Below are positions 5,730 through 20,190 of a DNA stretch of 64,000 bases, piece after piece. Made by a program: the position numbers and the translations under genes. The stretch is from Pseudomonadota bacterium (GTDB taxonomy: Bacteria > Pseudomonadota > Gammaproteobacteria > Xanthomonadales > Wenzhouxiangellaceae): assembly GCA_036832975.1 (NCBI GenBank), contig DAITQM010000007.1:14465-78464 (forward strand). Reading direction: 5' to 3'. The stretch's first letter is position 1; the number at the start of each line of letters is the position of its first letter. The notes beneath the pieces were generated by a model. That model searched no databases, was not told where the DNA came from, and was given only the letters and a program-made list of their open reading frames with translations.

Positions 5730-6162
5730 CGTCCACCCCGCCGGCAACGGCGGCCCAACCCGTTTTATGCGGGCGGTAACCGATTTCGCCTTGGCGCTCC
5801 AAATCGCCGTAATAACCGGCGAAAATCAAAGTGCGCAAACCCCACACCGCCAGCCGGAGCTTCAAGACCGGCGCCTCGTGCAGCGTTTCCAAAAAGCACC
5901 GCAGCCGATCTGCCGGGATGCGTTCGAACGGGCTGAAAAACCGCGCCGCCGCCAACAGGACCACGCCGCGCAGTGCCAATGTCACCTGCCGGCGCAGCCG
6001 CCCGGGCCGCGCCGCCAACATGGCATCCGCCCGCGCCAGCACGCCGGCTATCCCCGCTTCATCCAGTACCGCAGCGGCGGGGATAAACGCTTCGACCAAC
6101 GGACGCAGGCGCCGCGGCCGGCGCGCCAGTAGCAAAATCTCATCAGTCACGACAAACCCCAA
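5716..6162 (-). CDS. Small accessory subunit-like protein co-transcribed with the GMC oxidoreductase (gluconate 2-dehydrogenase subunit 3-like), hypothetical
   Basis: ORF overlaps the downstream GMC gene start by 14 nt. Arg-rich N-terminus (RRPRRLRP). Start codon uncertain (TTG 6162 or GTG 6150). Confidence 0.45.
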   Translation of the reverse strand: MGFVVTDEILLLARRPRRLRPLVEAFIPAAAVLDEAGIAGVLARADAMLAARPGRLRRQVTLALRGVVLLAAARFFSPFERIPADRLRCFLETLHEAPVLKLRLAVWGLRTLIFAGYYGDLERQGEIGYRPHKTGWAAVAGGVDDAAH

Positions 6163-6176
6163 TCGATCAACAGGTC

Positions 6177-6435
6177 AACCCAATTGTTGCATAGATTCCC
6201 GGAATTCCCTGCCTGCCGGCAGGCAGGTCGGTCAAGCTGGTGAGAGCAGCTTGTCCAATTCCCTGACAAATGCGTCTGGAACGCAATTTGAACCGCGCAG
6301 CGGGCCCGCAGGGCGAGGGCAGGATAGCACGAGTACAAATGCGTCGGGAACGCAATTTGAACCGCGAAGCGGGCCCGAAAAGCGAGGGCAGGATTGCCCA
6401 AGTAAATCGAGCAAAATTTATGCAACTATTGGGTT
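6177..6435. mobile_element. MITE-like non-coding element with terminal inverted repeats
   Basis: Left end AACCCAATTGTTGCATA (6177-6193) and right end TATGCAACTATTGGGTT (6419-6435) are imperfect inverted repeats. Interior has a perfect palindrome cctgcctgccggcaggcagg and two 69-bp tandem repeats. No ORF. The right end abuts the break in the intI stub. Confidence 0.6.
6267..6404 (+). repeat. Tandem direct repeat, 2 x 69 bp
   Basis: caaatgcgtcKggaacgcaatttgaaccgcg...gagggcaggat is repeated head to tail (6267-6335 and 6336-6404) with a few substitutions. Confidence 0.85.
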
Positions 6436-6534
6436 TACATACGCCTTTTCGGTGCGGATGCTGTAATGCCTGGCACAGATCTGCGTGCGAAGTTGATCGA
6501 GCAGTTTTAGTGGTATTTTACTAATGATAACCAT
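6418..6534 (-). pseudogene. intI: Integron integrase (intI) N-terminal stub, copy 1, truncated after about 33 codons
   Basis: Minus-strand translation is MVIISKIPLKLLDQLRTQICARHYSIRTEKAYV, then NPIVA and a stop. The LLDxLR...RHYSxRTExAY motif is the N-terminal SAM-like signature of integron integrases. It is divergent from the cassette array. The remainder is replaced by the MITE-like element. Confidence 0.7.
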
Positions 6535-6646
6535 TGAGTTTGAATCTAAGTTATTGAATTTTAATGAATATTATAGGCAAGTGAAAAATTATACACTGGA
6601 AGAAATGTTTATGGTATATTACTTTGGTGTATAGTTATAGTTAGGC
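6535..6646 (+). other. attI-like region, type 1, copy 1, ending in core site GTTAGGC
   Basis: Lies between the intI start codon and the first cassette. AT-rich. Inverted TATACAC/GTGTATA boxes. GTTRRRY core at 6640-6646. The first cassette begins with TTAGGC. Confidence 0.6.
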
Positions 6647-6660
6647 AGCTTCCTCACACG

Positions 6661-7179
6661 ATGAACGGGGATCCGTCCTCCAAGATGACCGAAAACGTTA
6701 CGGTCGAGCACGCAACCGAACGTGACGTAGCTGCCATCGCCGCGGTGCTCATCGCCAACCGCAACGATGCCTCGCTATTCCTCCGCTCGCAGCAGGACAT
6801 CGCTCGCTGCTTCAGCGACTTCATCGTTGCGAGGGACGGTTCAGCGCAACTCGTGGGCTGCGCTGCAATTCACCGATACGGGCCTAACCTGGCCGAACTT
6901 GTTTCGGTGGCTGTTGTGCCGACGCTTCACGGCGCCGGGATCGGGAGTTTGCTTGTTTCGCGATCCCTTCAGAAGGCAACCACCGGCGGCATCACAAGGG
7001 TGTGGCTAGCCACAGCCAAACCAACGTACTTTGCGCAGTTCGGCTTTCGGTCAATGTCACGTTGGGCGTTGCCGCTGGCCGTGCTTCTGTCCAAACTCAA
7101 GCAGGTGTTCCAGCAGCCGGTGGCCCACTGGTTCCCGTCTTTGTTCGCACGGTTTACTTTCATGGTCCGCGATGCGTAG
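6661..7179 (+). CDS. GNAT-family N-acetyltransferase (cassette 1)
   Basis: Acetyl-CoA binding motif VVPTLHGAGIGSLLV and the C-terminal YFAQFGF motif. Followed by an attC. Confidence 0.75.
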   Translation: MNGDPSSKMTENVTVEHATERDVAAIAAVLIANRNDASLFLRSQQDIARCFSDFIVARDGSAQLVGCAAIHRYGPNLAELVSVAVVPTLHGAGIGSLLVSRSLQKATTGGITRVWLATAKPTYFAQFGFRSMSRWALPLAVLLSKLKQVFQQPVAHWFPSLFARFTFMVRDA

Positions 7180-7188
7180 AAAGTCGAA

Positions 7189-7257
7189 AGCTAACACTTC
7201 GGTCAACCGGACGCTCCGCCGCAATGCGGCTCTGCGCCGGTTACCTCTGCGTTAGGC
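7189..7257 (+). other. attC site (69 bp) of cassette 1
   Basis: R'' AGCTAAC (7189-7195) and R' GTTAGGC (7251-7257). Imperfect palindrome cggtcaaccggac / gccggttacct. Confidence 0.7.
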
Positions 7258-7274
7258 GGACGGATCAAACGCCG

Positions 7275-8054
7275 TTGCAAGAACTCAACACAATCCTCCA
7301 ACTGATCCCGCAGGCTCGCGAATACCGGCGAGAGCAGATATCTATCGGCAGATCTGGCTCCTCGGTCTACGGACTCGCAAATCCTAGTAGGCCCACTCGG
7401 TTTCTGAAGGTGTCGACCGCGGATGACGCCTGCGATTTGGAGGCCGAACGCGATCGTCTTGCTTGGCTTGCGAACAGAACATTCGTTCCGAAGGTTCTAG
7501 AATTTGGTAAGGCCGAAGGATTTGCATTTCTTTTGACGGAGGCCCTTCCCGGAGCCAACGCTGCAGAAGCACCTGCGCGCCTTTGGTCTCGGCTTGTTGA
7601 GCAGGTAGCACGCCAGTTGCGTCAACTACACTCGCTGCACCCCGATGACTGCCCGTTCGATCGGACCCTTGATCGAGTCATACTCCTTGCGGGCCAGCGC
7701 GCCGAGACTGGTTTGGTAGACGATTCCGACTTCGACCCCGAGCATACCGGCCGTAGCGCAATGGAGTTACTCACCTCGCTCCACCACAGGCGCCCCCAAT
7801 CCGAGGACATAGTCGTTACGCACGGCGATGCCTGCCTACCCAACCTAATCTTCGAGAATGGCAACTTCAGCGGGTTCGTAGATTGCAGGCGATGTGGTCG
7901 TGCTGATCGATATCAGGACCTTGCGCTGGCACACCGACGCATCGAAAGTAACTTTGGAGGCAGCCTCGCCGAGGATTTCCTTAGCGCATACGGATTGGAG
8001 CATGTCGACTCCCGGAGGCTATCCTACTATCGCTTGCTGGATGAGTTCTTCTAG
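7275..8054 (+). CDS. Aminoglycoside/antibiotic phosphotransferase (APH-family kinase) (cassette 2)
   Basis: Kinase motifs VVTHGDACLPNLIF and VDCRRCGRADRYQDLALA. The track ORF (from 7002) crosses the attC at 7189-7257, so the start must lie inside the cassette. In-frame TTG at 7275 proposed; start uncertain. Confidence 0.75.
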   Translation: MQELNTILQLIPQAREYRREQISIGRSGSSVYGLANPSRPTRFLKVSTADDACDLEAERDRLAWLANRTFVPKVLEFGKAEGFAFLLTEALPGANAAEAPARLWSRLVEQVARQLRQLHSLHPDDCPFDRTLDRVILLAGQRAETGLVDDSDFDPEHTGRSAMELLTSLHHRRPQSEDIVVTHGDACLPNLIFENGNFSGFVDCRRCGRADRYQDLALAHRRIESNFGGSLAEDFLSAYGLEHVDSRRLSYYRLLDEFF

Positions 8055-8063
8055 TGGACAGCC

Positions 8064-8163
8064 GCCTAACATGGCCGATGCAGCTGACATCAAAAAGCGT
8101 CACACAAATTGCTTCCGCAATTTGTCCGCCGTTTTCCGGCGCAGCTGATCGCCGGTGTTATAC
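8064..8163 (+). other. attC site (100 bp) of cassette 2
   Basis: R'' GCCTAAC (8064-8070) is the exact complement of the cassette start TTAGGC (7252). R' is GTTATAC (8157-8163). Arms atggccgatgcagctg / cagctgatcgccggt. Confidence 0.8.
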
Positions 8164-8181
8164 CAATTGGAGGGGCATAAT

Positions 8182-9069
8182 ATGTGGAATATTTTTTCTA
8201 TTGCTTTCTTTCTAGCATTACTCTTCATTACATTGGAAGCAAATGCAATTGAATCCCGGATCTCGTGGACGACTGTGAAGGACCAGCGGTCGTTGGATGA
8301 GATCATTCAGAATTCCGTTTCACAAGGGAAGAGTTCAGTTCTTTACTTCTCCGTCGATTGGAGCGTTGACGCAAATCGCACTGAAAAAAACCTATGGATA
8401 CCGAAAAAAGGGCATGAACACTTTAATTTCATAAAAGTCGATCTAAGCGCATGGGATGAAGAGTCGAAGCTACTTATTGCCCACTATAATCTAAGCCAAG
8501 AAACATACACTCCGGTACTCATGATGTTAGATCAGAAGGGTCAAGAGGTAGAAGCAAGTAGGATTGTAGGCCCGAAGATCTTAACAATTAATGCTTTTGT
8601 TTTATGGCTACGTGAAGGGCATCTCAGCTTAACTTCCTCTTCTCCAACAATTGGTCACGTGACTATCGTCAGGACCGAAAGCGGGGGGAAGCCTAAGAAT
8701 GACGATATCGATTCTGTCTTTCGTTATAAAGTAAGTCACGAGGAAAGTACAATCATTGCAGACTTTACAATTTCTCCCAACTATTATCTCTACAAGGACA
8801 AATTTAAAATTGCAATAAACGGGAATGTTAGCCCTAGCGCTGATCTTCACTTTGCTGGAACACCGGTCCAACATGCCGATGCCGCTTGGGGTAGCAAAGA
8901 AGTATTTGAGGATAATGTGAAAATTGAACTCGATTTAGGCCGCAATAACTTCCTAATTTGCAATCCTGAAGCAGCCAATCAAATTGCTCTTTATTATCAG
9001 GGTTCAAGCAAATCAGGAAAATTCTACCCGCCACAAAAGCGAACTGTTCAATTTGAAGTAAGGTGCTAA
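8182..9069 (+). CDS. Secreted DsbD-like protein: thioredoxin-like (gamma-type) domain fused to a DsbD-alpha-like domain, catalytic cysteines absent (cassette 3)
   Basis: Signal peptide [22 protein letters not shown] preceded by [28 protein letters not shown] aligns with the DsbD-gamma [33 protein letters not shown] and [19 protein letters not shown] align with the DsbD-alpha DGYYLYRKQIRI and TYQGCADAGFCYPPETKTV. Confidence 0.65.
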   Translation: [295 protein letters not shown]

Positions 9070-9075
9070 AAAATT

Positions 9076-9185
9076 GTATAACAAGAGGCTGCTACGGACA
9101 CAAAACAGTTGGCGACTTTCCTGCGTTCGCTGCGCTCAGCCACAAAAGCGCCAACTGTTTTGTGCCGCAGAGCCATGCGTTGGGC
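9076..9185 (+). other. attC site (110 bp) of cassette 3
   Basis: R'' GTATAAC (9076-9082) is the exact complement of the cassette start TTATAC (8158). R' is GTTGGGC (9179-9185). Long arms cggacacaaaacagttggcg / cgccaactgttttgtgccg. Confidence 0.85.
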
Positions 9186-9297
9186 ATCATGAAAAGCGAG
9201 GCAGCCACGAATGCTGTAGTGCCTGAGGGGGCCTGGCACGGATCAGGAAGCGAAACTGGTCGAGTAGCTTTGGGAGTTTTTTACTATTGATAACCAT
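9186..9297 (-). pseudogene. intI: intI N-terminal stub, copy 2 (degenerate, contains an indel)
   Basis: Minus-strand translation MVINSKKLPKLLDQFRFLIRAR, then a small (8-9 nt) insertion, then HYSIRG. Homologous at nucleotide level to 6437-6534. It starts immediately after the R' of the preceding attC. Confidence 0.6.
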
Positions 9298-9410
9298 TGA
9301 GCTTGAATCTAAGTTATTGAATTTGGAGGAATATTCTATGCAAGTTAAAAAATTATACACCAGAAGAAATGTTTATGGCATATTACTTTGGAGTATAATT
9401 GTAATTGAGC
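9298..9410 (+). other. attI-like region, type 1, copy 2 (core mutated to ATTGAGC)
   Basis: Near-colinear copy of 6535-6646 (ccattgagYttgaatctaagttattgaatt...atggYatattactttgg). The core G is mutated. Confidence 0.55.
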
Positions 9411-9566
9411 GGCGCTCGCGCTCCCTCGCTTCGCACCGCTTAACGGATCGGGCGCCGGCGCCGGCGCCGGTGAAGGTGTCGCTAGCGGGGGACGAGGCGG
9501 CATAGTATGATTACCGGGTTGATCATAAGCTGATGAAATTACCGGATGCCGGGGAGCGCTCGCGCC

Positions 9567-9681
9567 GCCTAACCGGCGCTGGAGCGGACACCGCTTCTCG
9601 GCCAAGCCCCGTGCTAGCGGCGCGAGAATCCCTTTTCGCGCGCTGCGAGCGGGGTGCCGCTCAGCGCCCGATCCGTTAGGC
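9567..9681 (+). other. attC site (115 bp)
   Basis: R'' GCCTAAC (9567-9573) and R' GTTAGGC (9675-9681). Arms cggcgctggagcggacaccgc / gcggggtgccgctcagcgccc. An extra orphan R''-L'' arm, GCTTAACggatcgggcgc, sits at 9438-9455. Confidence 0.75.
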
Positions 9682-9720
9682 ATCGGTTCGGCAAAGTAGA
9701 GTAGAACGGACAGCGATGAT

Positions 9721-9942
9721 ATGAGCGCCAACAAAACAGTCTTAGACATGAATGATGACGAACTTTTACAGGGTTGTCGACGGACAGCAGAATGCACTCA
9801 ATTTTGGCACAACGACTATTATCGCGAGATAGAGCGCCGAACTCAAAATAGGCACACTAGAGCAATGATTTGGTTGACCGTAGTGATTGGTGTGTTGACA
9901 TTTGTTGCTACCGCTGCAACGGTTATCGGGGTAATAAAATAA
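9721..9942 (+). CDS. Small tail-anchored membrane protein, hypothetical (cassette 5)
   Basis: 73-aa ORF with a C-terminal TM helix IWLTVVIGVLTFVATAATVIGVI. Low-G+C codon usage like neighbouring cassettes. Confidence 0.45.
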   Translation: MSANKTVLDMNDDELLQGCRRTAECTQFWHNDYYREIERRTQNRHTRAMIWLTVVIGVLTFVATAATVIGVIK

Positions 9943-10031
9943 GAGTCATTGATAGACTGTAGTTGAATAGCTGGATCAACTTTAGGAAGCCGATCGAGGA
10001 CAGTCACCATCACCGTCACCCCAACGAGCCG

Positions 10032-10139
10032 ATCGAGCGGCTCGCGGCCGCACAGCCAGGCCTGGCGGACGCAGCGCGAGATGCAGTGGTAAAAGCCCGG
10101 CTGGCCGGGGGTGACGATATGGGCGCGGGGGTAGGTCAT
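10032..10139 (-). pseudogene. Y1 (IS200/REP-associated type) transposase N-terminal fragment
   Basis: Minus-strand MTYPRAHIVTPGQPGFYHCISRCVRQAWLCGREPLD matches the conserved N-terminus of Y1 transposase-like proteins as I recall it. The reading frame loses similarity after about 36 aa. High-G+C patch inside a low-G+C cassette. Confidence 0.45.
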
Positions 10140-10279
10140 GGGGGCATGGTGCCGGATCTGCTGGCGTGGCTGTATCGGCCGAGGGCGCGTCAACGTGTAG
10201 GCCGGGGCCAACGGGGGTTGTCAGCGGGGGCTGACAGAGTCGTGACAACAGAATCATGACTGTCCCGAATCGGCTTCAC

Positions 10280-10430
10280 GTTCGCCGGCGCTGCGCGCCG
10301 GCGAACGGAGCGGCGATATGCGGCTTATAATGATAGTAACCGGAATGACGGAAATACCATCGAGCACAGGAGGCTGCGCATGACGATTGCTTCTTCGTTC
10401 AAGGCAATGCTGGCGCGCAACGCCGTCGAA
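10280..10430 (+). repeat. 151-bp repeat, copy 1: ORF-less cassette carrying hairpin, TATAAT box, SD and short-ORF start
   Basis: The first 77 nt are identical to 11462-11538 and the last 52 nt nearly so. Contains GTTCGCC/GGCGAAC forming an 11-bp perfect hairpin, TATAAT at 10326-10331, AGGAGG at 10368-10373 and ATG at 10380. Confidence 0.85.
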
Positions 10431-10507
10431 CCAGCAATGATGCCCCCATCGGGGAACGGGCATCGAGCCCGTCCCCCGATGGGCCGCATATCGCCGCTCC
10501 GTTGGGC
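10300..10507 (+). other. Unusually long attC-like site (208 bp) making up almost all of cassette 6
   Basis: R'' GGCGAAC (10300-10306) is the exact complement of the cassette start TTCGCC (10281). Arm ggagcggcgatatgcggc (10307-10324) pairs with gccgcatatcgccgctcc (10483-10500). R' is GTTGGGC (10501-10507). Confidence 0.6.
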
Positions 10508-10538
10508 ATCAGAACCGAGCCATTGGACTCTCTCATGA
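10380..10538 (+). CDS. Short ORF (52 aa) spanning the cassette 6/7 junction, stop overlapping the next gene's ATG
   Basis: AGGAGG, 6 nt, then ATG. Product MTIASSFKAMLARNAVEPAMMPP.... The TGA at 10536-10538 overlaps the ATG at 10535 (ATGA). The first 17 codons are conserved in the second repeat copy. Below the 60-aa track cutoff. Function unproven. Confidence 0.35.
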   Translation: MTIASSFKAMLARNAVEPAMMPPSGNGHRARPPMGRISPLRWASEPSHWTLS

Positions 10539-11398
10539 TGGAATCGAATAACAGATCCAGTCCCCTTCCGCTCAGTCGTAGAGTTCTTTACGGGATTACA
10601 GACTGGGCGCTACTTGGTGCGGGGCTTGCCAATCTTGCCGTCGGCACCCTCTCGGCATTGAATGATTCCGCAGCGATAGCTGCAACGTCCCTCGCAGCAG
10701 GTCTCGTGCTTCTATTTGCCGCAACCATTGATCGCTTTGAGTCATTGAAGGGGCTTGGTATCGAGGCGAAGACTAAGCAACTCGATCAAAAGATCATCCA
10801 AGCCGATGACGCATTGCGACGTCTTCGTGAGATGACTGAGATCACGGGGGCGGCACTGATTGATCTAAACAGCAAGATGGGCCGATGGGACTCTGCTCCC
10901 GGGGCGCGAGAGACGATCGCTCTCGCCGATCGCGTCAGACAGATAATGAAAAATTTGGGGTCCAGCGATGACGTTATCACTTCCGCCCTACGTCCTTGGG
11001 CAAAGACACTTTGCTTTGACATGGCTATCGCGCAAACGCATGGATTAAGAGGACTACTGCAAGCCCGTATAAGTTCGCTGGAGGCCGAACGTCAGAAGAT
11101 CAAGCAGCCAATCCAGCCAGATGATCCACTCTTCAATCAGCTAACTACCCAAATTCGGTCAATACAAGAATTTCAGGGTTCTCGACTCAAGGATCTGCGT
11201 CGACTGGAACTTGAAGACTATCCGCACCGATTCATGGAAATATTTGACGACGTTCCACAGATCGACCCGGTCGAAATAGACAGTCTTCGCAAAGCTGCGG
11301 CTCGCTTTGCTCCTGGCATGTCTTCTCTTCGTGAATCCAGGTCATTGCCGGACCCAGAGTTGTGGATAGATGCTCTCAGCAAAGCGCGGGAACGCTGA
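10535..11398 (+). CDS. Hypothetical protein with two N-terminal TM helices and a long helical/coiled-coil domain (cassette 7)
   Basis: TM segments ITDWALLGAGLANLAVGTLSAL and AIAATSLAAGLVLLFAATI, then a heptad-rich region. I recognise no family motif. Cassette start TTGGGC (10502) matches R'' GCCCAAC. Confidence 0.55.
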   Translation: MMESNNRSSPLPLSRRVLYGITDWALLGAGLANLAVGTLSALNDSAAIAATSLAAGLVLLFAATIDRFESLKGLGIEAKTKQLDQKIIQADDALRRLREMTEITGAALIDLNSKMGRWDSAPGARETIALADRVRQIMKNLGSSDDVITSALRPWAKTLCFDMAIAQTHGLRGLLQARISSLEAERQKIKQPIQPDDPLFNQLTTQIRSIQEFQGSRLKDLRRLELEDYPHRFMEIFDDVPQIDPVEIDSLRKAAARFAPGMSSLRESRSLPDPELWIDALSKARER

Positions 11399-11399
11399 T

Positions 11400-11468
11400 G
11401 CCCAACCCTGCGGTCAACCGGACCTTGCACATAAAGCCGCGCAAGGCCGGTTACCTTGAACGTTCGCC
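11400..11468 (+). other. attC site (69 bp) of cassette 7
   Basis: R'' GCCCAAC (11400-11406) is the exact complement of TTGGGC. Arms cggtcaaccggacc / ggccggttacc, the same attC family as 7189-7257. R' is GTTCGCC (11462-11468). Confidence 0.75.
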
Positions 11469-11612
11469 GGCGCTGCGCGCCGGCGAACGGAGCGGCGATA
11501 TGCGGCTTATAATGATAGTAACCGGAATGACGGAAATATGATGGAGAATAGGCGGCTTCGCATGACGATTGTTCCTTCGTTCAAGGCAGCGCTGGCGCGC
11601 AACGCCGTCGAA
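11462..11612 (+). repeat. 151-bp repeat, copy 2 (3' attC arm missing; fused to ttctagttatac)
   Basis: Same hairpin, TATAAT (11508-11513) and short-ORF start (ATG 11562; 18 codons MTIVPSFKAALARNAVEF). The stop TAG ends exactly on the G of the GTTATAC core (11618-11624). Confidence 0.85.
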
Positions 11613-11637
11613 TTCTAGTTATACGGCTTAAATCACT

Positions 11638-12485
11638 ATGCCATCAGCAACCATCAAATTATTTCTGGTCAATGGTGACCCCAAAAGGCTTCGAACCGCT
11701 GAAATTTCTAATTGGAGTGGTAAGGCTGTTGCTGGGCCTCGTAGTGAGTTTGATGGCATATTGGCGCGGAATGAATCTTTTCAAGCCGGTATATATCTAC
11801 TTGCGGGTACTGATCCAGAAACTGGTAAGCCAGCACTTTATGTTGGTGAAGGGGAATGTATAAAAGACAGAATAAAGGCTCATCTTTCAAAGGATTTCTG
11901 GAATCAAATTATTTTCTTTGTTAGTAAAGACGAAAATTTAACCAAATCACACATTCGCTATCTAGAAGGCCGGCTTATTGAACAAGCCTTAAAAGCTAAA
12001 CGCTGCATTGTTACAAATAACCAAAATAGCGGGGCTAAGCTTCCAGAGTCTGACAAAGAGGATATGGAAGTATTTTTAAGTAAAATTTTCCAATTGTTAC
12101 CAGTATTGGGTGTTGAGTTACTTGTTTCGGTATCTGAAAAATCCCCAACAGATAAAAAGGAAAGAGAAATACTTTATTGTGAAATTAAGGGCATAAAAGC
12201 TAAGGGTCACCTGGTTCCAAATGGATTATTAGTACTGAAAGACTCTGAGGCGGTGTTTAAAGAACGGCCATCTGTAGAAAAATATCCATGGCCTAAAAAT
12301 ATGAGAGATAAATTCCTGGAGGAGGGAACTCTTATTGCGGATGGTGACAGGCTTATTTTACTGAAGATGTAGAATTTTCAAGTCCAAGTGCAGCAGCAGC
12401 TGTAATTCATGGCGGACATGCTAATGGACTCACTGCTTGGAAAAATAAGACGGGTGTAACACTGAAAGAAATGGAAGCCGGATAA
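11638..12485 (+). pseudogene. GIY-YIG nuclease with C-terminal DUF4357-like domain, interrupted by a frameshift near 12345-12352 (cassette 9)
   Basis: GIY-YIG motif GIYLL...LYVGEGECIKDRIKAH. Frame 1 stops at 12372. The conserved tail TEDVEFSSPSAAAAVIHGGHANGLTAWKNKTGVTLKEMEAG continues in another frame to TAA at 12483-12485. Could be a true frameshift or a sequencing error. Confidence 0.65.
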
Positions 12486-12557
12486 CATGTCATTCCACCG
12501 GACAAAATTTCCGCTGCTTGCGCAGCTCAATTTTGCCGGTGAATTCCGGCGTTAGAC
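12480..12557 (+). other. attC site (78 bp) of cassette 9
   Basis: R'' GGATAAC (one mismatch to the complement of TTATAC). Arms cattccaccggacaaaatt / aattttgccggtgaattc. R' is GTTAGAC (12551-12557). Confidence 0.75.
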
Positions 12558-12560
12558 GGC

Positions 12561-14441
12561 ATGATTGAGGGTGTCACGATGATGGAGGCTTTTGACGAGA
12601 AGCGGACATATATGATACCTGCGACGAACCGCGTGACTGTAACTCGCACTGGTTGCCTATCTGAGTTCTCTCGGCTGATCGCTGTAGTTTTGGTTATAGC
12701 TGTTACGTCGTCTGCCAGTTTTGCGTGCGATTCCCTGGAAGCTTGTATTGCCCAGTATCCGGAAACGGCAGTAGGAGACCACGGGATCGGACAGGCAGAA
12801 GGTGACTTGACTCGCCGAGTTCAGGCTTACGGCCCAGACGCCATTCCCCATCTGATTCGACTCCTTGAACATGAGAATGCGGCTGTGCGGCGGCTGGCCG
12901 GATACACGATACGGGGCATCGACGGTCTCGCCCCTGAACACCTTGAACCGCTAATGAGGGCGAGGGAGAAGGGAGACGGCTGGATACCGCCAGCTATCGC
13001 CAGGATCGGTACGCAGGAGGCGATCGAGTTCTTAGTGGATGACCTCCGCAAACATCCCCAGAAGCATACACAAGTGACCTACGCTTTCGAAATACTCGGA
13101 GCGAATGGAGCGCCGTTTATAGCAGAATTGTTTGCATGTGCTGACGACTGCAATGAAAGAGTGTTCGATGTGGCATCCTTCGTGCTGGGCGAACTAGGCG
13201 AGGATGCCCTTGCCGTTATCCCGCGGTTGCTGGAAATAGCCGACAGCGATCAATTCACGCTGGCCGGCAGGCGGTATGCGATTGTCGGCATCGGTCAGAT
13301 CGGTTCCAGCGCAGAACCGAATGTCCCAGCATTGTTGGCTTTGCGCCAGGGGGAGCCGCTCCTTGCATCAGCCGTCAATCTCGTGCTACTTCAGATAGGA
13401 TCCCCAGAAGCCGTAGCTTCATTGCTTCAAGCACTGCCACGCGACGCAAAGGATGTGTTACCGGAGATCAGGAGTCTTGGCAAAAACGGCTACGATGCAG
13501 GCCCTGAAGTGCTCGCCTATCTCAATGATCAGGACTGGGACATTAGAGTGGCTGCGGCTGATACTCTAGGACACATTGGATACTCACCAGCGTCATCTGC
13601 CCTCGCAAAGATGCTAACTGACATCGATGACTGGAAACTCGTCTACGCTGCGAGTTTATCCTTGGGGCGCTTGAGTGCGGATGAGTTCCTTGAAAACTTG
13701 GAAAGTGTTCGAAATACGCACTGGTATCCACCAGTCCGCGATATCGCTGATTCCGCGATTCAGCATATCCAGACCGGTCAGGCGATGGATGAAGGGGAAT
13801 GGTGGCACTTGAGCACTGTTGAAAACAGTCCGGAGACATGCGATGCGGTGAACTACCGGACCGTCGACGAACCGGAAGGTACGAAACTATATGCAATTGA
13901 CAATAGCGAAAAGTTGAAGCTTTTGTCATATAAGACTGCAATTTATTCGTACGGTGCGCCGGAAGGAACAGAGCCGAACGAACAAGGGATTATCGAAGTT
14001 ACTGTTAAGAATGTGGTTGAACACGTGGAGTATGTTCAGCAGGTGCCCGACCTCGCATTGAAAGTCCCTTGCGGGTGGCTAGTTGGTGCGGACAGAGGCG
14101 AGTGGGGCGGTGAACTCGTTCACATCCCTACAAAAGGCGATAGTTATGTCCTGTATGACGGGAATGTGGAGGACGTCTTTCACCTTGGAGATCAAATTGT
14201 CGCGCCCGCGGGGTTGGCCCATATGTTCAGCAATCAGGGCGTATTACTGAGAATCGTCGAGGACGAGAACGGACGGTTCACGGCAACTCCGTGGAAACGA
14301 CTCCCCGGCGCACCGGCATCGTCATGGCTCATTGAGGGGAGTAAGCTACTCGTGAACACATATGGCGGAGGCAGTATCGTGGTCGATGGTGACGGCACAA
14401 TGCGCATGGCAGAATGTGCTCCTGATCAGACCAGCGAATGA
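12561..14441 (+). CDS. HEAT-repeat (PBS-lyase-type) putative lipoprotein with an uncharacterised C-terminal domain (cassette 10)
   Basis: Hydrophobic leader ending in the lipobox-like SASFAC. Repeated HEAT-like units (ENAAVRRLAGYTIRGI; DWDIRVAAADTLGHIGY; AIPHLIRLLEH). The C-terminal 200 aa or so are beta-rich with no motif I recognise. Confidence 0.6.
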   Translation: MIEGVTMMEAFDEKRTYMIPATNRVTVTRTGCLSEFSRLIAVVLVIAVTSSASFACDSLEACIAQYPETAVGDHGIGQAEGDLTRRVQAYGPDAIPHLIRLLEHENAAVRRLAGYTIRGIDGLAPEHLEPLMRAREKGDGWIPPAIARIGTQEAIEFLVDDLRKHPQKHTQVTYAFEILGANGAPFIAELFACADDCNERVFDVASFVLGELGEDALAVIPRLLEIADSDQFTLAGRRYAIVGIGQIGSSAEPNVPALLALRQGEPLLASAVNLVLLQIGSPEAVASLLQALPRDAKDVLPEIRSLGKNGYDAGPEVLAYLNDQDWDIRVAAADTLGHIGYSPASSALAKMLTDIDDWKLVYAASLSLGRLSADEFLENLESVRNTHWYPPVRDIADSAIQHIQTGQAMDEGEWWHLSTVENSPETCDAVNYRTVDEPEGTKLYAIDNSEKLKLLSYKTAIYSYGAPEGTEPNEQGIIEVTVKNVVEHVEYVQQVPDLALKVPCGWLVGADRGEWGGELVHIPTKGDSYVLYDGNVEDVFHLGDQIVAPAGLAHMFSNQGVLLRIVEDENGRFTATPWKRLPGAPASSWLIEGSKLLVNTYGGGSIVVDGDGTMRMAECAPDQTSE

Positions 14442-15248: not shown

Positions 15249-15403
15249 TTACATTTCCCTGGGGTGTCGCTTGTGATTGAACAGAATGAAGCGCCGCACC
15301 TTGTCGGTGTAGCATTTTTCAGTCCGGATGCTGTAATGGTGCGCCCGGATGGAATCTCGAAGGCGGTCAAGCAGCTTTTGGGGCTTTTTGCTTCAGTCAA
15401 CAC
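15249..15403 (-). pseudogene. intI: intI N-terminal stub, copy 3 (different lineage; frameshift in an A-run, truncated after about 45 codons)
   Basis: Minus-strand KKPQKLLDRLRDSIRAHHYSIRTEKCYTDKVRRFILFNHKRHPREM then a stop: the classic IntI N-terminal motif. The start (GTG/TTG at 15403) is in a different frame. Confidence 0.7.
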
Positions 15404-15517
15404 AGATTGGGTGAGCGTAACTCATTGATTGGTAGGAAGAATTTGTGCTATGATGTGTATTTATACACCATTTAACATTTTTTATCAACCATTTTTGGTG
15501 TCGAATTCTAGTTAGAC
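15404..15517 (+). other. attI-like region, type 2, ending in core GTTAGAC
   Basis: AT-rich spacer between intI stub 3 and the next cassette. Palindromes gtgtatttatacac and acacca...tggtgt. Core GTTAGAC at 15511-15517. The next cassette's R'' is GTCTAAC. Confidence 0.5.
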
Positions 15518-15530
15518 CGACGAGAACCCG

Positions 15531-16031
15531 ATGGCTCCGAAATCAACTGAAACCGTGGAGTCTTGCCCCGAGTGCGGAGCGTCAGTACTCAGCGGCCGTG
15601 CAGGGTGCCAGCGGTTGTTCGACGAAATCCTGGCGCGTGAATTCGGCGACTACAGGTACGCCGGCGAGCACCGCTTGATGGTGGATGTTTACTCCCTCCA
15701 GCATCCTGCAGAGTACATGCGGTCGGCGAAGTCGTATGCGGCGCACCTTACCGGAATGTACGCGGCGCTCGAACTCAGTGGCACGTCCGAGGTGAATCGG
15801 GCTGTCCAGACATGGCTGAACGGGCCCCAGACCTTCCAACGCCCAGACAATCCTGGGCCGCTGCGGCGGGGAGTGCTCACGATCGTCCACATCCATGAGG
15901 CAAGAGAGCCTGAAGAGCACGTTCGCCGGGTCCGCGAATGGGCGCAGTCTGTTTGGGAGGCTTGGCGCGGCTACCATCATGTGGCCAAGCAGTGGATTGA
16001 GGAAGCGACTGCACGTCTGCGGGCGGTCTAA
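15531..16031 (+). CDS. DUF5946-like protein with N-terminal Cys cluster (cassette 12)
   Basis: CPECGA...GCQRLFDEIL followed by a helical region. The family assignment is from memory. The R'' box overlaps the stop codon. Confidence 0.5.
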   Translation: MAPKSTETVESCPECGASVLSGRAGCQRLFDEILAREFGDYRYAGEHRLMVDVYSLQHPAEYMRSAKSYAAHLTGMYAALELSGTSEVNRAVQTWLNGPQTFQRPDNPGPLRRGVLTIVHIHEAREPEEHVRRVREWAQSVWEAWRGYHHVAKQWIEEATARLRAV

Positions 16032-16125
16032 CAGGCCGTTGCAGACTGACGAGCGGCGCTGGCAGGTCAAGCGGGATTGAGACGAGTCGAAGCGCCGCTC
16101 GCAGCTGAGCGGCACGGCGTTAGCT
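16026..16125 (+). other. attC site (100 bp) of cassette 12
   Basis: R'' GTCTAAC (16026-16032) is the exact complement of TTAGAC (15512). Arms ggccgttgcagactgacgagcggcgc / gcgccgctcgcagctgagcggcacggc. R' is GTTAGCT (16119-16125). Confidence 0.8.
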
Positions 16126-16156
16126 GCGCAAGTACTCTACTCAGGAACATAGAAAG

Positions 16157-16783
16157 ATGTATGTCCCGAATCATTTTAAAGAAGAAGACCAAGACAAGCT
16201 TCAACAGTACATTCGAGATTATGGATTTGGGCTGCTCGTCATCGCAGACGAAAAAGGGATTGAGGCCAATCACGTACCCTTTCATCTGAGTTCTGGGGCA
16301 AACGGCTCTCTTGGTTATCTTCAGTGTCACCTGGCCCGCAGTAATCCAGTCTGGCAACGTATGCAGGGCGGAGTTCGAGTGCTTGTAGTTTTTCAGGGGC
16401 CAGATGCTTACGTTTCACCCTCATGGTACGCAACCAAGGCCGAGACAGGCCGGGTCGTCCCAACATGGAACTATCTAGCTGTCCATGCACAAGGTAACGC
16501 CCAGATTATTCAGGATCCAAGCTGGTTGAAACGTCATCTCCATCAGCTAACAGACCAACATGAGTCGCAAATGGTCGCCCCTTGGTCTGTGGACGATGCG
16601 CCGACGGATTTCACTGAGCGTTTGGTACAGGCTATTGTAGGCGTAGAGATCAAAATTGAAACTCTGACGGGTAAGCTGAAAGCAAGTCAGAATCAGCCGG
16701 AGAGGAATCGGACCGGTGTCAAAGCTGGCCTCATGACAGGAGAAGGATCGCAGAACCGTGCCATGGCCAAGCTCATCAGCTAA
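16157..16783 (+). CDS. paiB: FMN-binding negative transcriptional regulator, PaiB family (cassette 13)
   Basis: MYVPNHFKEED...ANHVPFHL N-terminus and the PTWNYLAVHAQG motif are typical of PaiB. Confidence 0.75.
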   Translation: MYVPNHFKEEDQDKLQQYIRDYGFGLLVIADEKGIEANHVPFHLSSGANGSLGYLQCHLARSNPVWQRMQGGVRVLVVFQGPDAYVSPSWYATKAETGRVVPTWNYLAVHAQGNAQIIQDPSWLKRHLHQLTDQHESQMVAPWSVDDAPTDFTERLVQAIVGVEIKIETLTGKLKASQNQPERNRTGVKAGLMTGEGSQNRAMAKLIS

Positions 16784-16855
16784 CCAGGGGCTGTTGTCGG
16801 ACGGTTTTTCCGTCGCTTCGGTCCTCCAAAACCGCCGCAAAGCTCGGCGTTATGC
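16778..16855 (+). other. attC site (78 bp) of cassette 13
   Basis: R'' AGCTAAC (16778-16784) is the exact complement of TTAGCT (16120). R' is GTTATGC (16849-16855). Confidence 0.75.
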
Positions 16856-16907
16856 CGCAGCAAAGAGCCTGGTTGACATGTCATATATGGTATAGTCATA
16901 ATATGGT

Positions 16908-17189
16908 ATGTGGCGCATCGAAGAGCACCGCCGGGTAGATAGGCAGGTTGCAACGATTCCGAAGGATATTCTGAAGCGATATGAGAAATGGAAAGATATC
17001 GTGACAATATCCGGTCCACCTGGACTTCGGCTTATTCGGGGGTTCCATGACGAGGCGCTATCGAGTAAGTGGCGTGGGTATCGGTCATCCCGGCTTGGAC
17101 TTCAGTGGCGTGTTATATACCGTGTAATTCCGGAAAAGCTGCTGTTCCAAGTGGCATCGATAACCGCCCATGACTATCGGAGGCCTTGA
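16908..17189 (+). CDS. RelE/ParE-superfamily toxin (toxin-first, HigB-like gene order) (cassette 14)
   Basis: 93-aa basic protein with the WRVIYRV and ITAHDYR motifs. It overlaps a downstream XRE antitoxin. Confidence 0.65.
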   Translation: MWRIEEHRRVDRQVATIPKDILKRYEKWKDIVTISGPPGLRLIRGFHDEALSSKWRGYRSSRLGLQWRVIYRVIPEKLLFQVASITAHDYRRP

Positions 17190-17190
17190 A

Positions 17191-17451
17191 ATGAGAGATT
17201 ATCGTCCCGCAAAAAAGCGCATCGAGGTGTCGGTAGGAGAATCCGTACGGATTCTTCGCGAACTTCAGGATCTGAGCCAAAGCCAGCTCTCCCGTTTGAC
17301 CGGGATTCCGCAGGCAACCATCTCCGCCATCGAGAATGATCGGGTCCGCCTGGGAGTGGAGCGAGCGAAAGTTCTAGCCAAGGCTCTCAAGTGCCATCCG
17401 GGTGTGTTGGTATTCCCGGGTTGGGAGCTTCCCGGGAAGGCTGCGGCATAA
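17191..17451 (+). CDS. XRE-family HTH antitoxin
   Basis: HTH LSQSQLSRLTGIPQATISAIENDR. GGAGG lies 8 nt upstream of the ATG at 17191. The cassette R'' GCATAAC (17446-17452) overlaps the stop and is the exact complement of the cassette start TTATGC (16850). Confidence 0.7.
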   Translation: MRDYRPAKKRIEVSVGESVRILRELQDLSQSQLSRLTGIPQATISAIENDRVRLGVERAKVLAKALKCHPGVLVFPGWELPGKAAA

Positions 17452-17482
17452 CACGTCGTTCGTGCGGACCGGCTGTGCCGGC

Positions 17483-17850
17483 TGTCATTTTTCACCCATA
17501 TGGCGCCATTTCGTTTTCGCCTTAAAGGCGCCACCTGTTTTTCGGGTTAAAGGCGCCAGGGCGTATTCGCCCTAAAGGCGCCACCGGATTTTCGGCCTAA
17601 AGGCGCCACCAGGGCGGCCGGTTTTCGCGTTTCAGACTTCTTTCAATGGCCTACCCTCGGTTGTTTTGACCGAGGAGGGCCCGATGAACCGGAGGTTTGA
17701 GATGCACCAGTACCGACATATCCTTGCCCGCATGCGCCTTTGCGAGTCCGATCGCCAGATCGATGCGGCCGACCTGATGAATCGGAGAATGGCGGCCAAG
17801 CTGCGCAAAAGGGCAACCTTAATGCAGATGAACGAATATACGCCATGAGA
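17483..17850 (+). mobile_element. IS21-family (IS408-like) left-end remnant inserted in the attC of cassette 14
   Basis: Starts TGTCA. Five copies of GGCGCCA-containing units of about 24 bp (17500-17612), typical of the multiple terminal repeats of IS21-family ends. Followed by the IstA N-terminus MNRRFEMHQYRHILARMRLCESDRQI (17684 onward), truncated near 17815-17850. Confidence 0.5.
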
Positions 17851-17852
17851 AG

Positions 17853-17894
17853 TAGTTATGGTATATTACTTTGGTGTATAATTGTAATTTAGAA
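17853..17894 (+). other. attI type-1 core, third partial copy
   Basis: agttatggtatattactttggtgtataattgtaatttagaa matches 6607-6646 closely. The core is degenerated to TTTAGAA. The next cassette's R'' is TTCTAAC, complementary to TTAGAA. Confidence 0.55.
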
Positions 17895-17897
17895 CGC

Positions 17898-18548: not shown

Positions 18549-18767
18549 CGATTCCGTCGAGACGGACCGCCTGCAGGCTGCACTTTAGGGTTTCCTACGC
18601 GGCTTCGCTGCTACGGTGGCACCTCACGTCAAACCTTGGTCGTCACTAGCATGATACTGGCGCTGCCACGAGCTACGCTCAGATCTGATGTATGAGCTTA
18701 CTTGAAAAGCGGCGGCAATCTCTGCTGAAATTAGAAGTGTCAACCCACTGATTTCAGACAAAAAGAC

Positions 18768-19190
18768 ACCCAGGCGCAAGCCCATCGAGTAGGTGGTCAG
18801 CATGAATATCCGGTAGCGCAGCTTGCGCGCCGCACCGATCAGGCGCTCAATCTCCGCGACTCTCAGAATGACAGGCAGCGAGCGAATCTTCGGCGCCCGG
18901 ATCATCTCGACCCACTGCCAGTCACGCCCGAGTACATGTTTGTAGAAGAACTGCAAGCTGCACCGGTCCAGCTTGACGGTGGGCCAGGAATGCGACTCGA
19001 CCAGTTCGGTAAAGCATCGCGCCAACTGCTCGGGCTCCAGCCGATCCGGGCAGCAATCGAACCAAGCCGAAATCCGCCGCACGGCGCGGGTATAGGCCTC
19101 GATGGTCCTGTCGCTCATGCCCTGCAATTTCAGGGCCAGGAGGTGTTTCAGGTACAGTTCGTCGAACCGTTTTTGCTCGGATTTTTTCAT
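18768..19190 (-). pseudogene. Tyrosine recombinase of the IS91-associated type, C-terminally truncated (catalytic domain missing)
   Basis: MKKSEQKRFDELYLKHLLALKLQGMSDRTIEAYTRAVRRI...RKLRYRIFMLTTYSMGLRLG matches the N-terminal 140 aa of integrases found next to IS91-family transposases (from memory). Similarity ends at 18768. The track ORF 18624..19310 carries unrelated ends. Confidence 0.55.
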
Positions 19191-19381
19191 GGTGGTAAAC
19201 TCCTTGAAAATGCGCCCCGATTGGGCGCCGGTCAAGGATTGCACAGAATGAATGGGGTTTTCTGCCGCGGAGCGGCTTCGTTCAACAACAGCATACAGCG
19301 GATGGTCCACTGCGCGGCCCGCAACTGGTACTGGACGTTATGTATCTGAAATACCTGATCACGTCGTATTGGACGCATTGA

Positions 19382-19642
19382 ATGGGAAAGTATTCAAAAC
19401 TCAGGGAAAAAATTCTGGCGGGCATCGCTGATTCAAACATCGAGTTTGCCGAATTGTGCAAGTTACTTGGTCGCCTTGAATTTGAGGAGCGGGTAAGGGG
19501 TGACCATCACATCTTCACTCGGTATGGTGTTGTCGAGATCATCAATTTGCAGCCCAAGGGCAAGAAGGCGAAACCCTATCAAGTCAGGCAAGTCAGAGGT
19601 ATTATTGTGAAATATCGATTGGGAGAAAGCAATGTCGATTAA
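19382..19642 (+). CDS. hicA: HicA-family toxin (cassette 16)
   Basis: 86 aa with GDHHIFT and KPYQVRQV motifs. It overlaps hicB by 11 nt. Confidence 0.75.
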   Translation: MGKYSKLREKILAGIADSNIEFAELCKLLGRLEFEERVRGDHHIFTRYGVVEIINLQPKGKKAKPYQVRQVRGIIVKYRLGESNVD

Positions 19643-19844
19643 ATATGAATTTATTATTTACTGGAGCGAAGAAGATCACAGCTTTGTAGTCGAGGTTCCT
19701 GAGCTGCCTGGGTGTATGGCGGACGGAGAAAACTACGAACAAGCTGTGGCTAATGCACAAAAGGTAATTGAGGAATGGATTGCAACCGCGAAGGAGCTGA
19801 ATCGGCCGGTTCCGGAACCCCGTGGCCGGCTGATGTATGCATAA
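19632..19844 (+). CDS. hicB: HicB-family antitoxin
   Basis: YEFIIYWSEEDHSFVVEVPELPGCMADGENYEQAV is the canonical HicB N-terminal fold motif. Confidence 0.8.
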   Translation: MSIKYEFIIYWSEEDHSFVVEVPELPGCMADGENYEQAVANAQKVIEEWIATAKELNRPVPEPRGRLMYA

Positions 19845-19910
19845 CAAACCCATCAAACCGACGATCTTTTCGCTGTGCTTCGTTCGCACGGCTTATGGGC
19901 AACGTTATAT
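19839..19910 (+). other. attC site (72 bp) of the hicAB cassette
   Basis: R'' GCATAAC (19839-19845). Arms aaacccatcaaaccg / cggcttatgggc. R' is GTTATAT (19904-19910). The cassette starts at GTTATGT (19337-19343). Confidence 0.7.
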
Positions 19911-20120: not shown

Positions 20121-20190
20121 GTCAGGGAATTGAACAAGTTGCACTCGTCAGCTTGACCGAGAATTCCGGGAATCTATGCAACAATTGGGT
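20121..20190. repeat. Half copy of the MITE-like element, inverted relative to 6177-6267
   Basis: The reverse complement of 20161-20190 is identical over 30 nt to 6178-6207 (acccaattgttgcatagattcccggaattc). Homology continues for about 45 more nt. It abuts a last orphan R'' GCATAAC (20096-20102). Confidence 0.85.

Follow-up and report, generated by a model that had tools for sequence, protein, structure and literature searches.

A probable gene-less integron cassette found twice in a degenerate, integrase-less chromosomal array

A direct repeat in the 64-kb window (the whole stretch of DNA that was analysed) is, in our preferred reading, the body of a short gene-less integron cassette that occurs twice in a degenerate, integrase-less chromosomal array, and we put the probability of this reading at roughly 0.6. 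Its structural part, the identification of the unit as a gene-less cassette, is highly probable, and a real effect of the unit in cis on expression is doubtful. The array comprises N-terminal remnants of intI (6445-6510 and 15255-15400), several copies of attI and about a dozen attC sites that all point the same way, and we found no intact intI in the 64-kb window. Decay of the array is visible in these stumps, in a frameshifted gene and in interrupted attC sites. An intI stump used as a query returned only other truncated integrases (57-67% identity), on contigs that do not carry the unit.

The repeat is ungapped over 153 nt at 93% identity (10278-10430 versus 11460-11612); copy 1 of the unit occupies 10280-10430 and copy 2 occupies 11462-11612, both on the + strand. 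Nearly all sequence-level points of the first-pass annotation stood up to checking. It had described the same 151 bp at both places, and while the repeat stands, the exact sameness does not: the copies show 11 differences over 10281-10430. Self-BLAST detected no third copy in the 64-kb window. Both copies open at the crossover GTTCGCC (10280 and 11462), as had been proposed, and the GTTCGCC of copy 2 is the R' box of the canonical 69-nt attC of the 2-TM cassette (11400-11468, + strand), which folds into an L stem carrying a bulged base, with its spacer unpaired. The unit also lies directly upstream of two unrelated cassette genes, in agreement with the earlier description. Downstream of copy 1, the 2-TM cassette gene (10535-11398, + strand) encodes a 287-aa membrane protein of unassigned function that belongs to a widespread cassette gene family, with 248 homologues of mostly about 287 aa and no family in Pfam or NCBIfam. 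The gene downstream of copy 2 (11638-12485, + strand) had been labelled a GIY-YIG nuclease, a label that we could not confirm; Pfam recognises only a frame-shifted DUF4357 tail (E 1e-14 in the shifted frame). This gene is frameshifted near 12360, with its ORF ending at 12372 and the domain tail running from 12366 in another frame, and the JGI contig has the same sequence there. Its attC follows at 12480-12557 (+ strand), where R'' GGATAAC matches the opening core GTTATAC at three of four variable positions.

Copy 1 forms a complete ORF-less cassette of 221 bp (10281-10501, + strand), starting with the T that follows the G of GTTCGCC, ending with the G of GTTGGGC, and flanked on both sides by core-site crossovers of the form G↓TTRRRY (G↓TTCGCC at 10280, G↓TTGGGC at 10501). 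The core GTTGGGC (10501-10507, + strand) that opens the 2-TM cassette is the exact complement of that cassette's own R'' box, GCCCAAC, at 11400. Homology to the 2-TM cassette starts at GTTGGGC in loci L027, L028 and L032-36 (in L028 as the first cassette, adjoining an integrase gene), and the sequence upstream of this point is unrelated in each context, which confirms 10501 as the true cassette boundary. The opening TTCGCC of cassette 1 is complementary to its own R''a box, GGCGAAC, at all four variable positions and to R''b, GTCGAAC, at three of four; among the gene cassettes of the array, 8 of 12 show complementarity between their first six nucleotides and their own R'' at all four variable positions. 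No + strand ORF in the cassette exceeds 52 codons and no - strand ORF exceeds 69, which is below the criterion of about 70 codons used for gene-less cassettes (PMC11014356).

Cassette 1 would consist almost entirely of recombination-site hairpin, its first bases pairing with its own R''-type boxes at 10300 and 10425. A hairpin GTTCGCCGGCGC-TGC-GCGCCGGCGAAC (10280-10306) joins the opening core to R''a (10300-10306) and recurs in copy 2 at 11462-11488; it had been correctly traced to the first six bases and the R'' box, but its perfect arms are 12 bp rather than the 11 bp first given. The right terminal inverted repeat (10409-10431), seen by self-BLAST and in the fold, ends in R''b (10425-10431) and matches 10280-10302 at 20 of 23 positions, so that the unit is bounded by imperfect 23-nt terminal inverted repeats and folds along its full length into a long hairpin whose ends are paired (copy 1, z -3.9; copy 2, z -2.5). 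The left arm of a perfect 21-nt inverted repeat (10304-10324) pairs with 10483-10503 and closes a 208-bp site from R'' to R' (10300-10507), whose bottom-strand DNA fold reaches -77 kcal/mol (z -7.5). This is the complementary arm described about 160 nt downstream; 158 nt separate the two arms. As read from the sequence, the outer 21-bp stem has a fully paired spacer and no extrahelical base. An imperfect palindrome (10427-10501, 77% self-complementary) makes up the 3' hairpin of the cassette, and together with R''b and GTTGGGC it forms an alternative 83-nt attC-like site (10425-10507, fold z -5.2) with an oversized 3' spacer of 11 nt. The attC features given here come from manual reading, MAFFT having misaligned the 5' arms in the nine local attC sites.

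Elsewhere in the array, a site at 9438-9681 has the same odd layout as the outer stem of copy 1. We considered it as a third, diverged copy and rejected it: an alignment score of 68 does not rise above that of GC-rich host DNA (65-71). Likewise, a 79-nt leader in locus L029 scored 25 as a relative of the unit, within background, and the idea that the ORF at 9843-10211 on the - strand is the stump of a Y1 transposase found no support in Pfam or NCBIfam and was abandoned.

Copy 2 is truncated. Cassette 2 spans 156 bp (11463-11618) between crossovers G↓TTCGCC at 11462 and G↓TTATAC at 11618, and in it the unit body is severed after the GTCGAA of the inner R''-type box, where identity to copy 1 stops, and joined to 9 nt of an attI-type simple site. 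This simple site, GTCGAAT-TCTA-GTTATAC (11607-11624, + strand, crossover after G 11618), forms the joint to the next cassette. A search of the 64-kb window for the 15-nt sequence GTCGAATTCTAGTTA gives 11607 and the end of attI-B (15500-15514) and nothing else, where 0.02 occurrences are expected, and a three-way alignment shows copy 2 tracking copy 1 through GTCGAA and attI-B from GTCGAA on. The shared 15 nt derive from attI, since attI-A has a homologous layout. No foldable 3' arm was found in copy 2, the bottom strand of 11480-11624 giving z 0.1; with its junction at R''/attI, copy 2 is thus left without its own attC arm and is effectively fused with the DUF4357 cassette.

Judged by these alignments, copy 2 is a recombination or deletion product of the unit. 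Either a deletion or an integrase-type exchange between the R'' box and the attI L box would leave the joint TTCTAG↓TTATAC. The joint may record integrase exchange between the top-strand attC R'' (AA↓C) and the attI L box (AA↓T), to our knowledge a reaction that is not normally seen. It could equally be a deletion across 6 bp of microhomology without integrase. The AA↓C of R'' is the integrase cut point on the folded top strand (PMC5027507). The two copies themselves would have arisen by cassette shuffling or duplication, and in the lineage of the window they appear to have traded at least 14 nt by gene conversion, unless this is an assembly artefact; the copy 1 differences concerned are four, at 10329, 10335, 10339 and 10342, and may instead stem from polishing.

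Variable sites were counted across the copies and assemblies, where the unit exists in three sequence versions. The first 49 nt (10280-10328) contain none, 10329-10376, which spans the -10 and the Shine-Dalgarno (SD) sequence, contains 11, and 10377-10430 contains 4, of which three are unpaired in the fold and one turns a G-C pair into G-U. Seven of the 11 differences between the copies sit on the SD zone (p about 0.003). These data suggest that the conserved parts of the unit, whether selected or homogenised, are its palindromic ends and not the -10 or SD motifs.

This distribution bears directly on the role for which the unit was first singled out, that of a portable expression module, in which a gene-less cassette with a -10-only promoter and an SD-led short ORF drives the next cassette. 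We consider this unlikely, although it has precedents and copy 1 has much of the expected layout. Gene-less cassettes with sense-strand promoter activity are documented (PMC11014356, PMC6557892), as are short ORFs in attI1 and attC that boost downstream translation (PMC8876359), and a cassette-borne promoter would matter here because no consensus promoter was found on the + strand across 6100-12700. The TATAAT hexamers are where they were reported (10326-10331 and 11508-11513, + strand), and copy 1 carries a strong SD, AGGAGG (10368-10373), 6 nt ahead of ATG 10380. From there, as described, a 52-codon ORF (10380-10538; 10368-10538 with the SD, + strand) runs through the hairpins and the recombination core to a TGA that overlaps ATG 10535 of the next gene (ATGA) and abuts ATG 10538. 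The + strand of the 14-kb island has only three AGGAGG-N6-ATG sites, this one included, and both downstream genes (2-TM and DUF4357) lack a clear SD.

Against such a module, the consensus scan found no -35/-10 pair reaching 9/12 matches in the unit, in line with the earlier remark that no convincing -35 box is present. In two other assemblies the copy 1 hexamer is TATCAT, and TATAAT by itself is no rarity: the + strand of the island has five. Copy 2 has lost the SD, which is degraded to AGGCGG, with a GGAG 15 nt from the ATG, and the short ORF there (11562-11618, + strand) has 18 codons instead of 52; its TAG (11616-11618) ends on the G of GTTATAC, as had been noted, 19 nt ahead of the downstream ATG. 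Coding differences between the copies are all non-synonymous, and this comparison gives no hint of coding constraint on the short ORF. The ATGA overlap is a property of the 2-TM family, being the cassette's own ATGAT start, which is kept in homologues with other upstream neighbours; the reading frame alone is therefore the coincidence. The unit is missing from four other contexts of the homologous 2-TM cassette, and the gene after copy 2 is a pseudogene. With no -35, a varying hexamer, an SD lost in copy 2 and no other copy found, the claim of a selected portable promoter or translation-initiation module was not borne out. In-silico promoter predictions, for their part, do not track activity in gene-less cassettes (PMC11014356).

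The arrangement described for translational coupling is present in copy 1, where SD, ATG, an ORF through the hairpins, ATGA and an SD-poor next gene are all in place; in copy 2 the SD is degraded. Any present-day effect of the unit would most likely be in cis, on a read-through transcript. Its hairpins on such a transcript would block ribosomes. Copy 1 alone has an SD-led short ORF that could open the hairpins and pass ribosomes on to the 2-TM gene, itself poor in SD, much as ORF-11 of attI1 and short ORFs within attC are described to do. For copy 1 an expression role is possible but unsupported, and its stronger form, a cassette-borne counterpart of attI1 ORF-11 with a -10-only promoter and a short ORF that would open its own recombination hairpins and stop on the next SD-less start, is rather improbable.

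Equally improbable, in our estimation, is the reading of the unit as the remains of a gene cassette, with SD, ATG and the initial 15-17 codons as the now functionless stump of a lost gene starting MTIASSFKAMLARNAVE whose body was deleted up to its attC. The strong, well-spaced start of copy 1, the visible decay of the array and the fact that a 17-residue N-terminus is too short for protein searches to detect all fit this history. However, the start lies behind a leader of 100 nt, compared with 14-40 nt before the start in the rest of the array, and the loss of a gene body would explain neither the terminal inverted repeats of 23 nt nor the perfect inverted repeat of 21 nt. The open frame has no Pfam match, no gene record with its product was found, and a phmmer search of 1.84 billion representative proteins returned only low-complexity or repeat proteins and no homologue.

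Other searches for relatives of the unit were likewise negative. Exact scans of genome contigs gave no match with 20-mers and nine chance matches with 19-mers, none extending beyond the k-mer, both weak negatives. The exact k-mer scan of metagenome contigs, a collection that lacks the source contig and so again a weak negative, gave one chance match in a Bacteroidetes glycosidase gene, and viral contigs scanned with two unit patterns gave none (exact k-mer scan, a weak negative). BLASTN of plasmids in distant mode gave no match, and a six-frame concatenated protein query of the unit, a poor test, gave none among the matches listed. Exact k-mer scans and plasmid BLASTN produced no relative of the unit in other collections, and its standing as a cassette family derives from its anatomy, with two copies, both in one array.

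A structured RNA, either an RNase III site at the 21-bp stem or an sRNA directed at the polycistronic transcript of the cassettes, is a very improbable account of the unit. A perfectly paired stem of 21 bp has the length that RNase III needs. As RNA, 10275-10545 folds with high stability (-141 kcal/mol, z -7.7), the sole stem substitution between the copies keeps G-U pairing on the + strand, and an integron-encoded sRNA has been reported in Xanthomonas (review PMC8876359). However, recombination sites carry hairpins anyway, the partner arm of the 21-bp stem is missing in copy 2, and Rfam, searched at gathering and E-value thresholds, gave no family near threshold. Least credible of all is a Correia-like miniature inverted-repeat element (MITE) present in the array by chance, to which the length of about 152 bp, the imperfect 23-nt terminal inverted repeats, the hairpin fold and the internal -10-like box would be suited, but both left ends coincide exactly with attC crossovers and the right end with an R''-type box, the flanks show no target-site duplication, and neither the other 50 kb of host DNA nor any of the collections searched yielded a copy.

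The reading as a gene-less cassette, present twice in a degenerate array, offers a worked example of cassette boundaries that can be proved by finding the same cassette in other contexts, of paralogous gene-less cassettes inside a decaying array, and of a joint that resembles an unusual exchange of R'' with an attI L box. If the expression role were true, a mobile leader of 0.2 kb could switch on silent cassettes deep in an array without moving them to attI, and findings on promoter cassettes would extend to the level of translation. An integron specialist would find little surprise in the present evidence on the unit.

Promoter-bearing gene-less cassettes and translational coupling of the ORF-11 type are already known. 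Like the promoter-active gene-less cassettes of Vibrio superintegrons (PMC11014356) and of Treponema in oral metagenomes (PMC6557892), the unit is short, bounded by crossovers and located in an array upstream of promoterless genes, with a -10-like hexamer and no ORF of at least 70 codons. Unlike them, it has no -35, its hexamer is not conserved across assemblies and its promoter is only putative. Its cassettes are also tiny (221 and 156 bp) and nearly all hairpin, copy 2 is missing its attC arm, and the array has no intact integrase. In attI1, ORF-11, ORF-17 and ORF-18 provide coupling, and short ORFs in attC relieve the block imposed by the stem-loop (review PMC8876359). The SD-led ORF of the unit resembles the ORF-11 type in crossing the crossover and stopping at or near an SD-poor next start; it differs from the attI1 ORFs in that it starts within a cassette, has 52 codons and runs through about 100 nt of hairpin, with an SD that is not kept in copy 2.

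With Correia-type MITEs the unit shares its size, terminal inverted repeats, transcript hairpin and internal promoter-like box, whereas its ends are integron core sites without target duplication and its two copies are confined to the array. Copy 2 resembles fused cassettes such as blaGES-1/aacA4 (PMC4670013, PMC8876359) in lacking a 3' arm and forming one unit with the next cassette, but its R'' joins the L-box, spacer and R-box of an attI-type site, which is not a simple internal attC deletion. Canonical attC sites, finally, fold into an R''-L''...L'-R' hairpin that has extrahelical bases, a central spacer left unpaired and a terminal structure that varies (PMC5027507, PMC2727003). Unlike these, the outer stem of copy 1 is perfect for 21 bp, with no unpaired spacer or extrahelical base; like these, copy 1 has R'' and R' boxes with correctly placed and oriented AAC and GTT and a long variable region between its arms.

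A gapless alignment of 10278-10430 with 11460-11612 at 93% identity confirmed that the unit repeat reported by the first-pass annotation is real, and no third copy of the unit occurs within the 64-kb window; external DNA searches for it were exact k-mer scans of limited reach. Each unit starts at the core GTTCGCC, and the opening hairpin is present (GTTCGCCGGCGC-TGC-GCGCCGGCGAAC), with an arm of 12 bp and not the 11 bp first described. The ends of the unit are 23-nt imperfect terminal inverted repeats (10280-10302 versus the reverse complement of 10409-10431, 20/23), and end to end it folds into a long hairpin (z -3.9 for copy 1, -2.5 for copy 2). On the right the unit ends in another R''-type box, GTCGAAC (10425-10431), after which copy 1 continues with a 75-nt palindrome (10427-10501) and R' GTTGGGC. 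Copy 1 would thereby comprise two nested attC-like sites, an outer one at 10300-10507 and an inner one at 10425-10507. The outer site, annotated earlier as a 208-bp attC, is indeed closed by two perfectly inverted 21-nt arms (10304-10324 and 10483-10503) that form a 21-bp perfectly paired stem; canonical attC sites are defined by an unpaired central spacer and by extrahelical bases (PMC5027507), neither of which it has. Both features are found in the neighbouring attC sites of the array. The inner site has bulges and an oversized 3' spacer.

In this array, the first six bases that follow a crossover G can pair with the R'' box of the same cassette: all four variable positions agree in 8 of the 12 gene cassettes, and three of four do in another three. 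The unit follows this rule (TTCGCC pairs with GGCGAAC at 10300), as does the 2-TM cassette 3' of copy 1 (TTGGGC at 10502 with GCCCAAC at 11400). The gene of the latter, for a 287-aa membrane protein, belongs to a large family (248 matches; closest named homologue 85% identical, from a Rhodocyclaceae MAG), and five of its contexts were fetched for comparison. In loci L027, L028 and L032-L036, similarity to the window starts at the GTTGGGC core and the 5' sequence is unrelated in each; in L028 the homologue is the first cassette, adjoining an integrase gene. In L029-L031 similarity starts 23 nt after the core, and a different insert of 79 nt, containing a hairpin and ending in an inverted core ACCCAAC (~150-400 in L029), separates the core from the conserved leader. 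This insert shares the unit's 'GTT...AAC' layout, though its sequence is unrelated, and nhmmer found the unit in none of the fetched contexts. Position 10501 is thus a true cassette boundary, copy 1 is an ORF-less cassette of 221 bp in its own right, and the 2-TM cassette has no need of the unit. In L032 (~3800-4000), and also in L033-L036, the attC of the 90%-identical 2-TM cassette is broken after its L'' by a repeat block (GGGGACAGACCACG...) that may be one end of an insertion element.

Between the two copies there are 11 differences, seven of which fall in a 20-nt stretch across the SD zone (p ~0.003). Two other assemblies cover the same locus. Over 6.9 kb of JGI contig Ga0104734_1000824 and 1.2 kb of a Logan contig from SRR1702226, the only departures from the window are four changes, all in copy 1 (10329, 10335, 10339 and 10342), by which TATAAT becomes TATCAT in both. 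At these four positions the window's copy 1 agrees with copy 2; over at least 14 nt its sequence appears to have been converted to that of copy 2, pointing to gene conversion or to an assembly or polishing artefact. Among the three versions of the unit, the only ones, variable sites number 0 in 10280-10328, 11 in 10329-10376 and 4 in 10377-10430, the last group comprising three unpaired in the fold and one changing G-C to G-U. As judged from these sequences, the unit is conserved or homogenised at its palindromic ends rather than at the putative -10 and SD.

The first-pass annotation had read the unit as a portable expression module, a promoter with an SD-led ORF. In favour of this reading, its start signal in copy 1 is as described (AGGAGG, 6 nt, ATG 10380) and is one of only three AGGAGG-N6-ATG on the island's + strand, and neither downstream gene has a clear SD. 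The 52-codon ORF ends in a TGA overlapping ATG 10535. However, the overlap comes from the 2-TM cassette's own ATGAT start, kept in its other contexts, leaving as locus-specific only the frame match (chance about one in three). TATAAT is found at 10326 and 11508, but lone TATAAT occurs five times on the island's + strand, no -35/-10 pair reaches 9/12 matches in or near the unit, and scanning 6100-12700 turned up no + strand consensus promoter. The SD of copy 2 reads AGGCGG, and its ORF has 18 codons, with the TAG ending on the G of GTTATAC (11618) as annotated. All four nucleotide changes in the short ORF are non-synonymous. For the open frame that spans the unit, a search of 1.84 billion representative proteins gave no homologue, Pfam gave no match, and no gene with such a product is on record. 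The gene 3' of copy 2 (11638-12485) is frameshifted near 12360, with a DUF4357 tail (E 1e-14) in another frame after TAG 12370, and the JGI contig carries the same frameshifted sequence; Pfam gives no GIY-YIG match for its 244-aa ORF, leaving the label first proposed unconfirmed. Of the portable module, then, the copy 1 SD-ATG and the ATGA overlap stand, whereas promoter consensus, the SD of copy 2 and conservation of the -10 and SD do not. In published work promoter prediction fails for gene-less cassettes (PMC11014356), so the unit may nonetheless hold a promoter.

In copy 2, identity to copy 1 stops after GTCGAA, from which point 15 nt (GTCGAATTCTAGTTA) equal the end of attI-B (15500-15514), which belongs to the second of two attI-like sequence types in the array; this 15-mer has only two matches in the window versus 0.02 expected. 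Because attI-A has a homologous layout, the shared 15 nt derive from an attI, and copy 2 is a chimera of unit and attI sequence. The joint falls at GTCGAA|C in the unit and GTCGAA|T in the attI L box. Integron integrase cleaves within 5'-AAC-3' (PMC5027507), and since this triplet sits in R'' on the top strand, the joint positions are where integrase would cut that strand. The joint would reflect either an exchange between R'' and the L box made by integrase or a simple deletion at a 6-bp microhomology, with neither favoured. On both routes copy 2 ends up without a 3' arm, the bottom-strand fold of 11480-11624 scoring z 0.1, and it now forms a fusion with the cassette that follows.

Both copies lie in an island with a GC content within 43-60% (window, 64-70%), bounded by perfect 29-bp inverted repeats (6179-6207 and 20161-20189; CCCAATTGTTGCATAGATTCCCGGAATTC) that may be the trace of a transposon-like carrier or of an old inversion. 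These repeats show no evident target duplication, and their similarity extends ~60 nt inward with a 20-nt indel. The island is a degenerate cassette array of about a dozen attC sites, all in one orientation, with minus-strand integron integrase N-terminal stumps at 6445-6510 and ~15255-15400 and no intact intI in the 64 kb. Type A attI-like sequences lie at 6468-6649, 9231-9413 and 17831-17896, and type B at 15403-15517; between them the two types account for four or five attI copies dispersed through one array. The overall picture resembles a mosaic built from several collapsed integrons. Further cassettes encode a DUF5946 protein (15511-16125), an FMN_bind_2 protein (16119-16855), an HTH_3 antitoxin-like pair (16849-17451) and a HicA/HicB pair (19337-19910). 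Also inside the array is a truncated minus-strand tyrosine recombinase with a Phage_int_SAM_4 domain only (18624-19310), ruled out by score as an integron integrase. A 69-nt tandem repeat (x2, 6266-6403) adjoins the left intI stump, and a 25-nt tandem repeat (x5, 17477-17626), inside which the JGI contig appears to stop, directly follows R'' of the toxin-antitoxin cassette. Just 5' of copy 1, hairpin arms (9986-10006/10257-10277) enclose 250 nt with a minus-strand ORF fragment (9843-10211; no match in Pfam or NCBIfam), and look like the halves of an attC divided at the apex by an insertion. A 244-nt attC-like site (9438-9681, second R''-like box at 9567), with R box, spacer and L box all paired (GCTTAAC-GGATC-GGGCGC versus GCGCCC-GATCC-GTTAGGC), matches the outer site of copy 1 in its long, perfectly paired, non-canonical layout; its sequence similarity to the unit is not above background.

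The unit is best explained as a duplicated gene-less cassette, built mostly of recombination-site hairpins, in a decaying array, with one copy intact and the other truncated and fused. Any present effect would be in cis, on read-through transcripts, and the SD-led ORF of copy 1 could open the hairpins, handing ribosomes to the 2-TM gene. The perfectly paired long site, whose layout recurs at 9438-9681, and the R''-by-attI junction are minor curiosities. By analogy, the copy 1 ORF may be likened to attI1 ORF-11 and attC-embedded ORFs, for which opening of hairpins or passing of ribosomes has been described (PMC8876359). Gene-less cassettes that bear promoters, coupling by ORF-11, ORF-17 and ORF-18, and fused cassettes are already known, and the unit fits as a putative further example of these kinds.
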